Source: Eledone cirrhosa (Eukaryota). From it: a stretch of 64,000 bases of DNA. Location of the stretch: assembly GCA_964016885.1 (NCBI GenBank), contig OZ024746.1, positions 81,964,001 to 82,028,000 on the forward strand. Reading direction: 5' to 3'. This document shows positions 18,522-28,167 of this stretch, in pieces. The notes under the pieces are model-generated. The model searched no databases. It saw nothing but the letters and a program-made list of their open reading frames with translations, and was not told the DNA's origin. Position numbers and translations under genes: made by a program. The first letter of the stretch is position 1, and every line of letters starts with the position of its first letter.

Positions 18522-18555
<34 letters not shown>

Positions 18556-18610
18556 TATATATATGTATATATATATATATATGTACGTGTATATATATAT
18601 ATATATGTAC

Positions 18611-18683
<73 letters not shown>

Positions 18684-18701
18684 GAGATATATATGTTCGT
18701 G

Positions 18702-18785
<84 letters not shown>

Positions 18786-19192
18786 AATATATATAGATAA
18801 TTTAATATATCAACTAACATAAGCGCACAGATGCACGCCCATGCCAGCAAATACACAGGTTATGTCATAGTACCTAGGTGGTTCAATGCAGGAGAATGCA
18901 GAACAATAATATAAAGGACGTAAAATAAGAAAATATTTTTTAAAAAAAATTTTAAAAAAATTTTTTACTTACTTAAATTTTCACTCCAACTAATTAGTTT
19001 CTGCACCCATTCCTTCTAACTAGCCTCTGTGTCACGTGATTGATTCTTTAGAATCGGCCATTTGACTTGAAGCAGTGAGAATTTCGGTACATAGAATCCA
19101 GTCCTCGCAAGCTGTTCGATCTACCGAATTATTATTATTTTTATATGAGCCGCCAGTGTCCGCGCATTGCCTGGAGACTTAACTGAGAATAG

Positions 19193-19274
19193 ACTCCCTG
19201 ATGACGCAATGAATTCTCGACAGTTGGATTACGTAACTGTCTTTATCCCATTGCAGAAACTAATTAGTTGGAGT
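19193..19274 (+). ncRNA. Type I hammerhead ribozyme, copy 1
   Basis: Stem I ACTCC/GGAGT; core CTGATGA; stem II GCAATG/CATTGC plus GACAGTT/AACTGTC; GAAA; palindromic stem III CTAATTAG; predicted GUU cleavage after 19269. Confidence 0.88.
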
Positions 19275-19749
19275 GAAAATTTAAGTAAGTAAAAAATTTT
19301 TTTTAAATTTTTTTTAAAAAATATTTTCTTATTTTACGTCCTTTATATTATTGTTCTGCATTCTCCTGCATTGAACCACCTAGGTACTATGACATAACCT
19401 GTGTATTTGCTGGCATGGGCGTGCATCTGTGCGCTTATGTTAGTTGATATATTAAATTATCTATATTTATCTCCAAATCACTGATTTGTCGAGCAAACTT
19501 GTCAAAAGCACTTCTAAAAAAATTTTTTTTGGGGTGTTAGTAGGCGTCAGTCATCTTACCATCCCATTCCTTCTAACTAGCCTCTGTGTCACGTGATTGA
19601 TTCTTTAGAATCGGCCATTTGACTTGAAGCAGTGAGAATTTCGGTACATAGAATCCAGTCCTCGCAAGCTGTTCGATCTACCGAATTATTATTATTTTTA
19701 TATGAGCCGCCAGTGTCCGCGCATTGCCTGGAGACTTAACTGAGAATAG

Positions 19750-19831
19750 ACTCCCTGATGACGCAATGAATTCTCGACAGTTGGATTACGTAACTGTCTT
19801 TATCCCATTGCAGAAACTAATTAGTTGGAGT
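19750..19831 (+). ncRNA. Type I hammerhead ribozyme, copy 2
   Basis: Identical to copy 1; predicted cleavage after 19826. Confidence 0.88.
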
Positions 19832-20307
19832 GAAAATTTAAGTAAGTAAAAAATTTTTTTAAAATTTTTTTAAAAAAATATTTTCTTATTTTACGTCCTT
19901 TATATTATTGTTCTGCATTCTCCTGCATTGAACCACCTAGGTACTATGACATAACCTGTGTATTTGCTGGCATGGGCGTGCATCTGTGCGCTTATGTTAG
20001 TTGATATATTAAATTATCTATATTTATCTCCAAATCACTGATTTGTCGAGCAAACTTGTCAAAAGCACTTCTAAAAAAAATTTTTTTTGGGGTGTTAGTA
20101 GGCGTCAGTCATCTTACCATCCCATTCCTTCTAACTAGCCTCCGTGTCACGTGATTAATTCTTTAGAATCGGCCATTTGACTTGAAGCAGTGAGAATTTC
20201 GGTACATAGAATCCAGTCCTCGCAAGCTGTTTGATCTACCGAATTATTATTATTTTTATATGAGCCGCCAGTGTCCGCGCATTGCCTGGAGACTTAACTG
20301 AGAATAG

Positions 20308-20389
20308 ACTCCCTGATGACGCAATGAATTCTCGACAGTTGGATTACGTAACTGTCTTTATCCCATTGCAGAAACTAATTAGTTGGAGT
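20308..20389 (+). ncRNA. Type I hammerhead ribozyme, copy 3
   Basis: Identical to copy 1; predicted cleavage after 20384. Confidence 0.88.
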
Positions 20390-20467
20390 GAAAATTTAAG
20401 TAAGTAAAAAATTTTTTTAAAATTTTTTTTAAAAAATATTTTCTTATTTTACGTCCTTTATATAAAT

Positions 20468-20501
<34 letters not shown>

Positions 20502-20553
20502 ATACACGTACATATATATATACATATATATATTCATATATATACATATACAT

Positions 20554-20648
<95 letters not shown>

Positions 20649-24178: not shown

Positions 24179-24216
24179 TCTTGTCTGATGGCTCTGTGAA
24201 ACTCCAGAGTAATAAG
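24179..24216 (+). ncRNA. Degenerate minimal type I hammerhead
   Basis: TCTTGT-CTGATGG-CTCTGT-GAAA-CTCCAGAG-TA-ATAAGA. Stem I pairs, but the core has A9->G and stem II is collapsed. Confidence 0.55.
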
Positions 24217-24614
24217 ACTCACAATTTAGCCTTAATAAAGCACCCGTAAGTACTGGGGTCGATTTAATCAACTTCCCCCATCTCCTTCAAATTGCTGGCC
24301 TTGTGCCTATGAGAGAAATCATTTTTATTAATATCATCATGCAAGATTAACTGGCTTCTTATGAAGTTGCATCTCATGAGAGGTTTTTCGAGTCTTTTAA
24401 TGATAGGAAGCCAGCGCTATTATGAAAAGCAATGCGTTGCCCAGTCCAGGAATTAAACCAGTGACCTTATTGGCGGTGAGTCGAACACCCTAACCACTAG
24501 TACACGCGTCGGAGGTTCCATGTTGCATATTTTCCAAATTTCTATATTTTCCAAATATATAACAAATTTAGATGACAGATAAAAGTTCTTAAATCGTTTA
24601 ATTCTTTACAATTG

Positions 24615-24668
<54 letters not shown>

Positions 24669-24805
24669 TGTGTATGTGTGTGTTTATGCGTGTTTGATAC
24701 AACCATATAGTTACTTCCTACTTGTGTTATATATATATATATAACACAAGTAGGAAGTAACTATATGGTTGTATCAAACACGCATAAACACACACATACA
24801 CACGC

Positions 24806-24850
<45 letters not shown>

Positions 24851-25280
24851 CAATTGTAAAGAATTAAACGATTTAAGAACTTTTATCTGTCATCTAAATT
24901 TGTTATATATTTGGAAAATATAGAAATTTGGAAAATATGCAACATGGAACCTCCGACGCGTGTACTAGTGGTTAGGGTGTTCGACTCACCGCCAATAAGG
25001 TCACTGGTTTAATTCCTGGACTGGGCAACGTATTGCTTTTCATAATAGCGCTGGCTTCCTATCATTAAAAGACTCGAAAAACCTCTCATGAGATGCAACT
25101 TCATAAGAAGCCAGTTAATCTTGCATAATGATATTAATAAAAATGATTTCTACCATAGGCACAAGGCCAGCAATTTGAAGGAGATGGGGGAAGTTGATTA
25201 AATCGACCCCAGTACTTACGGGTGCTTTATTAAGGCTAAATTGTGAGTCTTATTACTCTGGAGTTTCACAGAGCCATCAG

Positions 25281-25284
<4 letters not shown>
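24181..25284. repeat. ~1.1-kb near-perfect palindrome (arms ~555 bp) centred on (TA)7 at ~24735
   Basis: 24181 TTGTCTGATGGCTCTGTG... mirrors ...CACAGAGCCATCAGACAA 25284. About five substitutions and a TA-length difference between the arms. Confidence 0.95.
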
Positions 25285-27792: not shown

Positions 27793-27831
<39 letters not shown>

Positions 27832-27953
27832 TGTATGCATAGTATATTTGCCAATATACCGTATGCTTAATTAAAAACATTTTGAAGACCTTACGCTATC
27901 ATTTTTAAAGTAGTGACTGTCACTTACTTCTTTTTGGCGAAAGAAGGCAGAGA

Positions 27954-27995
27954 AGCTAACAGTCTGTTTCATGCTGTTTGGCAATCATCAGAGCT
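27954..27995 (-). ncRNA. Minimal type I hammerhead ribozyme
   Basis: Minus strand: AGCT-CTGATGA-T-TGC CAAACA GCA-T-GAAA-CAG A CTG-TT-AGCT. Stem I is extended by GGCGGAAGAGAGCAG/CTGCCTTCTTTCGCC (27936-28015). Lies in a ~300-bp island between (TA)n tracts. Confidence 0.82.
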
Positions 27996-28129
27996 ACGTA
28001 CTGCTCTCTTCCGCCGAAAATTATAGAAGCTGGATTCTTATAGAATGCCAGTAATAATCAGGAGCTGATTATACAGAGCGATTGCCGGTCCAGCAAAAAC
28101 TAAGTATTAGGATTGGTGCTCTGAAATAG

Positions 28130-28167
<38 letters not shown>

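Follow-up and report, generated by a model that had tools for sequence, protein, structure and literature searches.

How a non-coding sequence came to stand in tandem copies beside an inverted piece of itself, inside a simple (TA)n repeat, is the question raised by a 1,673-bp insert at 18791-20463 of the window, the 64,000-nt stretch of Eledone cirrhosa DNA analysed here. The insert is bounded on both sides by (TA)n tracts; within it, an inverted arm of 215 bp meets 2.6 tandem units of 557/558 bp head-to-head. It is very probably a non-autonomous non-LTR retrozyme that was moved in trans by a Neptune-like Penelope-like element (PLE), and the full cycle proposed below is likely to be the best explanation of its structure.

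Measured from one predicted cut to the next, the units are 557 nt (19270-19826; unit position 1 is 19270) and 558 nt (19827-20384) long, and they differ by five substitutions and one indel. The right arm (19006-20463) covers 2.6 units in 1,458 bp, and the left arm shows up as a 99% match of 18787-19005 to the reverse complement of 19252-19470. The unit has 36% GC, the longest stop-free frame in the tandem arm has 52 codons, no ORF was found in this arm, and a tblastn comparison of a PLE protein with the window gave no match. The insert does not hold the RT and GIY-YIG ORF between pLTRs of an autonomous PLE; its tandem unit, non-coding, low in GC and some hundreds of bp long, is that of a non-LTR retrozyme. 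A target-site duplication (>4 bp in retrozymes) is unreadable within (TA)n. An initial annotation had described the non-coding unit repeated about 2.6 times in (TA)n with few differences, the inverted 215-bp partial copy on its 5' side and predicted cuts after 19269, 19826 and 20384. All of this was reproduced, the cuts agreeing with hammerhead cores recomputed here (starts at 19198, 19755 and 20313). The parts of the insert are the following.

18525..18790, no strand: left (TA)n target tract
18791..19005, minus strand: inverted left arm, unit 540-557 followed by 1-197, with the 3' half of the hammerhead only; its 3' end is putative priming site B
19005..19006, no strand: head-to-head junction of the two 5'-truncated arms, 0-1 nt overlap
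19006..19269, plus strand: 5'-truncated unit (positions 294-557)
19185..19274, plus strand: hammerhead copy 1, predicted cut after 19269 (GUU); stem I 19193-19197/19270-19274, core 19198-19204, extra C 19205, stem II 19206-19211/19249-19254 with internal loop and distal hairpin, extra A 19255, GAAA 19256-19259, palindromic stem III; candidate pseudoknot of strand 19185-19189 with 19214-19218 in the stem II internal loop
19270..19826, plus strand: full unit 1, 557 nt, predicted monomer or circle
19344..19348, plus strand: site A motif TATAT, internal copy (unit 75-79)
19353..19376, plus strand: conserved hairpin starting 5 nt past site A (unit 84-107)
19402..19451, plus strand: long covarying hairpin of the A-to-B "tail" (unit 133-182)
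19462..19466, plus strand: site B motif TATAT, internal copy (unit 193-197)
19471..19493, plus strand: conserved hairpin starting 5 nt past site B (unit 202-224)
19742..19831, plus strand: hammerhead copy 2, predicted cut after 19826
19827..20384, plus strand: full unit 2, 558 nt
20300..20389, plus strand: hammerhead copy 3, predicted cut after 20384
20385..20463, plus strand: last piece of the right arm (unit 1-79), whose 3' end is putative priming site A
20464..20645, no strand: right (TA)n target tract

Each tandem unit carries a type I hammerhead with core, three stems and covariation. Read 5' to 3', the 5-bp stem I is followed by CUGAUGA and one added C; next comes the 6-bp stem II, which carries an internal loop and a distal hairpin; after it stand an added A and GAAA, and a palindromic stem III leads to the cut site, GUU. 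Its conservation was surveyed along the chromosomes at the first 60 loci of a list of 63 clusters; these 60 contained 104 3' cores, 82 of them with a 5' core. The extra C precedes G10.1 and the extra A follows C11.1 in 81 of these 82 complete copies; in these two bases the core departs from the canonical form. CUGAUGA is intact in 75/82. Since an intact 3' core was the basis for picking loci, the conservation of that half of the hammerhead is partly due to the choice itself; stem II played no part in the selection. Its second pair is Watson-Crick in all 82 copies (C-G in 37, U-A in 29 and A-U in 16). In the covariation test, which used 38 of the 57 distinct motifs, 96.4% of stem II cells were paired, and both sides had changed in 75 cells compared with 23.7 after shuffling, a value reached in 0/500 shuffles; slid controls came nowhere near it. 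This strong covariation indicates that the hammerhead fold is under selection.

Scanning with Rfam, as the initial annotation had proposed, returned no hammerhead for 4 kb or for the 121 nt alone, with matches only microsatellite-driven or due to chance; this layout is thus one that Rfam misses. The layout is related to that of PLEs, whose minimal hammerheads are marked by a short helix I, a long helix II, a base added 5' of G10.1 and a palindromic helix III (PMC4209133). Compared with the forms described there, the window copy adds a second extra nucleotide, after 11.1, has a stem II region of 51 nt that includes an internal loop and a distal hairpin, and has a candidate pseudoknot reaching from the 5' flank into the stem II loop. 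In this PLE-like form with a long interrupted stem II, it is unlike the hammerheads of other metazoan retrozymes in the accounts available. The putative pseudoknot would pair GAGAA, conserved on the 5' side of stem I, with UUCUC, which is conserved in the loop of stem II; its five pairs are 96% paired, with a change on both sides in one sequence only. A second retrozyme family, described below, has a different complementary pair at the equivalent position. Pseudoknots between stems I and II are a known hammerhead device (PMC3088659).

Self-cleavage after GUU is what this architecture predicts. Stem III has a computed energy of 0 kcal/mol in the monomer and -11.4 kcal/mol in a dimer, and so weak a palindromic stem III suggests that cleavage may depend on dimerisation or on a protein. 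The GUU triplet is weaker than GUC. Weak cleavage, as dimers, has been described for PLE hammerheads (PMC4209133), and eight of nine Xenopus retrozyme dimers were reported to be uncleaved in vitro. The predicted fold of the linear monomer beat 100/100 shuffles (z -3.67). In the linear fold of 19270-19826 the 3' strand of stem I closes stem I; in the predicted circular fold it pairs with unit 295-300, a re-pairing that could shield a circle against re-cleavage.

The unit is dispersed, present in high copy number and found as monomers to multimers, as in retrozymes. In genome assembly G000 (3.0 Gb), an exact 20-mer of the 3' core occurs in at least 9,366 copies (5,000, probably a capped count, plus 4,366; reversed control, 0 and 0), well beyond chance, and a 34-mer specific to the young subfamily occurs in 1,940 (control, zero). 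A 286-bp piece gave 543 candidates in the same assembly; the 40 that were scored were all 100% identical and lay on four contigs. Across subfamilies, identity to the window unit lies between about 72% and 100%, and 53 complete units were 522-571 nt long. A single-locus repeat, an outcome that the initial annotation had allowed for, does not fit these counts. Contigs of the public sequencing run X1 contain nearly the whole unit, including the tandem joint, at very high depth, although they may not be independent of the assembly; in runs X4-X6 the unit appeared as one to three contigs only, at depths of 2-5 save for one short piece.

These data bear on the most mundane reading, in which a satellite confined to this place, a duplication or an error of assembly carries a motif that resembles a hammerhead by chance. 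The low-complexity surroundings and the lack of an Rfam match would suit it. Thousands of dispersed copies with fixed ends, the covariation and the X1 contigs with the family and its tandem joint, with the reservation just given, all speak against it, and it is refuted by the copy number together with the end rule described next, leaving it an extremely improbable account. At three loci (L047, L063 and L168), separate inserts of different subfamilies were found adjacent to each other within one (TA)n region.

Arms of this family have variable 5' ends, and their 3' ends are fixed at one of two sites, A (unit position 79) or B (unit position 197), that is, 79 nt and 197 nt past the predicted cut. 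Each site is a TATAT that merges into the (TA)n of the target and lies 5 nt upstream of a conserved hairpin. Between A and B sits a long covarying hairpin (15 of 53 units aligned), a candidate RT-binding element. A TA run of at least 10 nt adjoins 128 of 132 A or B ends by hand count.

The main set of insertions comprised 84 loci: 60 in order, 23 distinct young loci and the window. It contained 59 head-to-head inserts, of which 47 had both ends at A or B, and all 47 combined one A end with one B end, A/A and B/B being absent; the window insert is of this kind, with B on the left and A on the right. The remaining head-to-head inserts comprised seven with another end and five cut by the locus edge. 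At 15 further loci, picked for unit number or orientation, the A/B pairing held in 10/10, one insert being cut off and four single-armed. The rule was additionally run as a prediction test with exact end patterns, which gave 289 matches for the A end and 787 for the B end. On contig C1, up to 362.9 Mb, A was paired with B in 28/28 head-to-head pairs, 15 of them new and the others overlapping with earlier loci; there was no A/A and no B/B, and two other neighbouring pairs were not head-to-head. The inverted piece noticed at the outset is real but no stray copy: it is a second arm with a priming event of its own, and its end lies at the other fixed site. The insertions combine a microsatellite target, 5' truncation, tandem and inverted copies and a tail on one end only, the insertion signature of PLEs.

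Self-priming, or folding back, on an antisense template has been hypothesised to explain such arms in Penelope elements of rotifers (PMC3846280) and might apply here; at one locus (L180) both arms do stop at unit position 272, as at a fold-back junction. Fold-back would mirror one arm, whereas each arm here has its own fixed end site, the junction positions of the two mostly bear no relation to each other, and arm lengths are uncorrelated (rho -0.16, p 0.29), which makes this origin very unlikely. Two arms primed separately at A and B is the reading we retain. The overlap at the junction is 0-5 nt in 33 of the 59 head-to-head inserts.

Priming through a TATAT match alone was considered and rejected, since the other TATAT motifs of the unit (178-183 and 430) are almost never used as ends; one arm at L047 ends near unit 183. 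Variable (TC)n runs of up to 20 and more repeats lie between the B end and (TA)n at 13 loci (L040, L041, L044, L045, L054, L055, L058, L061, L066, L078, L079, L081 and L085), and internal copies have two or three. These runs could reflect re-copying by the RT at initiation, which may be telomerase-like, or later microsatellite growth.

What template the two arms were copied from can be read from variants. Among 42 multi-unit loci, non-majority alleles were fixed over all units of an insert in 144 locus-site cells. By comparison, there were 84 differences within inserts: 68 seen nowhere else, 10 in the chimeric locus L056 and six scattered. Doubleton alleles were confined to one locus in 33 of 88 cases, and such pairs make up 1.1% of all pairs. 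At L167, 17 variants are present in every full unit of both arms, and at L166 the arms reach 3.3 and 5.8 units. Among older pairs, the within-locus distance was smaller than that to the nearest other locus in only 14/27 and 15/26, in a cruder test that includes two loci with two separate inserts and the chimera. L056 (2335-3215) is the only chimeric locus among the 42; its array joins two subfamilies, and the switch appears to lie inside a unit, not at the cut.

The copying also ran through the predicted cut. Breaks just upstream of the cut site were found in 7 of 165 copies, compared with 8/142, 1/97, 3/121, 3/113 and 5/166 at control sites. A frequent start of arms at the cut site, which would have been a hint of linear templates, was rejected: an automated count, in which some ends were mis-anchored, gave 2/116, and the controlled count gave no excess. 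One haplotype per insert together with read-through thus points to a single monomer sequence, read as a continuous loop in both arms and copied repeatedly from both cut DNA ends. That this template was circular is probable; repeated jumping on a linear monomer, or later homogenisation, are possible alternatives to a circle.

Two other templates were weighed against the circle. If the PLE had copied an uncleaved linear multimer transcribed from an existing array, with the hammerhead in a minor role, read-through of the cut site would be expected equally well, and the anole PLE does use unprocessed RNA and tolerate hammerhead mutants in vitro (PMC11167929). Against this, lineage variants are fixed in all units, and differences private to a unit are found elsewhere in only 6/72 (outside L056), so that a monomer bottleneck is passed in each cycle; moreover, arms reach up to 5.8 units although linear copying can only shorten arrays, and the covariation of stem II reflects selection on the ribozyme. 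An uncleaved multimer is unlikely on these grounds. The second candidate, a cleaved linear monomer from which the RT makes multimers by repeated jumps from its 5' end to its 3' end, would impose an equal monomer bottleneck, would require the ribozyme and would let two variants meet in one array, as at L056. It would also be expected to stop arms preferentially at the cut site, which they do not do, and arrays are nearly always of a single haplotype in both arms, with the L056 switch apparently inside the unit; we consider it as improbable as the multimer and retain the circle.

An enzyme of the required class is present in the same genome. G000 holds 10,597 GIY-YIG candidates (PF01541); among eight ORFs scanned, five matched both RT and GIY-YIG, two RT only and one GIY-YIG only. 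One locus, L111, has 1.1-kb direct repeats, (TA)n ends and the U3-A8 hammerhead variant described in PMC4209133, and it carries the linker cysteine motif that marks the Neptune/Nematis clades (PMC8557442). The local autonomous families carry this motif and appear Neptune/Nematis-like, with the clade assigned from it only. The L111 family (L111, L112 and L146-L165) is a very young RT and GIY-YIG PLE family with many open frames: 67 scored copies showed 98-100% protein identity, 52 of them without stops. Related proteins numbered 825, and none of the 120 listed is named as a PLE.

The same insertion signature recurs in these elements. Across 23 loci of the L111 family, A/B pairing was found in 8/8 two-armed inserts with both ends called by motif; two more inserts fit by coordinates and one more was not callable. 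At L113 and L121, likewise, the two arms end at different sites. The class of the partner, a PLE with RT and GIY-YIG, is therefore well supported. An autonomous PLE with the same hammerhead, which the initial annotation had proposed to seek, was not found among 40 PLE loci screened, a small part of the 10,597: none gave a family-specific match, and the matches of the unit there were low-complexity or separate inserts of the unit family itself. Comparison of the unit with L111 pLTR DNA showed no similarity (score 39, shuffles up to 68).

A second retrozyme family, with a unit of about 460 nt and 3,189 candidates, was identified at L112 (6510-7419, G000:C5) and at L131-L145. It also has a long interrupted stem II and a candidate pseudoknot, its arms end at unit 86 and 191, and it follows the A/B rule in 6/6 (14 distinct loci). 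Homology to the window unit was rejected (score 69 versus a shuffle maximum of 75), and the two have a short motif and the layout in common, no more. More hammerhead families lie near GIY-YIG loci (L101, L114-L121, L124, L127 and L128), many of them with unpaired bases at the foot of stem II.

From these results we propose the following cycle. A tandem copy would be transcribed, and the hammerhead would cut after GUU, probably as a dimer through the palindromic stem III or with the help of a protein. The resulting monomer of about 557 nt would be ligated into a circle, as has been demonstrated for other retrozymes, which RtcB circularises (PMC7229834). A PLE RT-endonuclease would then cleave both strands of (TA)n, and the DNA 3' ends would prime at the UAUAU of sites A and B; the two sites and their strict pairing are observed, and a pair of enzymes is the presumed agent. 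Each RT would travel round its template for the fraction of a lap to about 5.8 laps seen in the inserts, passing through the cut site as the inserts show, and the truncated cDNAs would join head-to-head, with the overlap, mostly 0-5 nt, observed at the junctions. Where one end fails, a single arm would be left.

A two-ended RT complex of this kind has biochemical parallels. The purified anole PLE cuts and extends both strands, has two internal start sites and is predicted to be a dimer (PMC11167929). The same work also counts against the model, because the hammerhead was dispensable there (mutants were still inserted) and the RT started without target homology; the starts of the window unit do match the target, via TATAT. 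More specifically, but only tentatively, an asymmetric RT-endonuclease pair may cut both (TA)n strands and assign the two ends to different sites, A and B, on one and the same circular RNA, with both RTs rolling and the two cDNAs priming each other's second strand. If true, a single mechanism of this sort would account for the tails, tandem copies and inverted repeats of PLEs, whether autonomous or not.

With metazoan non-LTR retrozymes, as described in PMC7229834 and bioRxiv 10.64898/2026.07.22.740005, the family shares tandem non-coding units with a type I hammerhead in each, GC below 50%, no ORF, thousands of copies and co-occurring PLEs. The unit, which the initial annotation thought long for a metazoan retrozyme, falls within the 51-972 bp of published families (bioRxiv 10.64898/2026.07.22.740005; Li, Clavereau and Pollet 2026), and it is longer than the circles of 170-400 nt that have been demonstrated experimentally (Cervera and de la Pena 2020, PMC7229834; bioRxiv 10.64898/2026.07.22.740005). 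No pLTR relative of the window unit was found, whereas 21 of the TEs matched by Xenopus retrozyme families are reported to be PLEs. The accounts of metazoan retrozymes cited here were not found to describe fixed A/B ends, arms joined head-to-head or a single haplotype for each insert.

The insertions resemble those of EN+ PLEs (Neptune/Nematis) in their (TA)n target, 5' truncation, partial tandems and 5' inverted copy, in having a tail at just one of the ends, and in a pair of internal sites where the RT starts (PMC8557442, PMC3846280, PMC11167929). Unlike the EN+ PLEs described there, the window unit has no ORF, and its tail is 118 nt compared with the 30-40 bp reported. MRC1-type PLEs of Chlamys are similarly non-autonomous and form multicopy head-to-tail inserts, but as described they generally share 3' sequence with an autonomous partner and mostly lack hammerheads (PMC8557442). 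Judged by its sequence, the window insert appears to behave as a non-autonomous PLE while fitting every mark of a non-LTR retrozyme that can be examined at this level. The earlier suggestion of a retrozyme-like element mobilised by PLEs is borne out by thousands of dispersed copies, covariation, PLE-type ends and co-active PLEs that share the signature.

Inverted inserts are also known from L1 twin priming, in which the second target strand primes on the RNA and an inversion results. In that process the position of the second site varies and there is no overlap between the arms; the window family uses fixed sites for both, and its two arms are copies of one sequence, in many cases extending beyond a single lap.

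The link of retrozymes to PLEs and the circle model have already been published, and PLE-driven, circle-templated spread of animal retrozymes has been proposed, not shown, in these sources (PMC7229834, PMC4209133, bioRxiv 10.64898/2026.07.22.740005). A one-ended tail on inverted inserts has likewise been described (PMC3846280, PMC8557442), so the A/B rule sharpens a known trait. In the literature covered, with Repbase, Dfam and older PLE reviews outside it, the rule was not found quantified or tied to a model of one template and two starts. The window family was not found in the same literature; the supplements of bioRxiv 10.64898/2026.07.22.740005 may list similar families, and the main text of PMC13282606 contains neither "hammerhead" nor "ribozyme".

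The A/B pattern bears on how PLEs, the sister group of telomerase RTs, copy RNA into DNA, and the origin of tandem, inverted and tailed PLE inserts is regarded as an open question (PMC8557442). The family offers thousands of natural insertion products that obey a near-exceptionless rule, and young open-frame PLE copies in the same genome are candidate enzymes, so that a 557-nt RNA, one protein and a (TA)n target would suffice to put the model to the test.

Elsewhere in the window, a 1.1-kb palindrome at 24181-25284 is 98% perfect, and its centre is a TA run near 24735. A further short hammerhead of type I, with its core at 27991, lies in a (TA)n-flanked segment on the minus strand (27830-28130) and is unlike the 557-nt family. 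In addition, a 340-codon open frame on the minus strand (1821-2840) matches the rhodopsin-family GPCRs (PF00001, E 1.3e-27).
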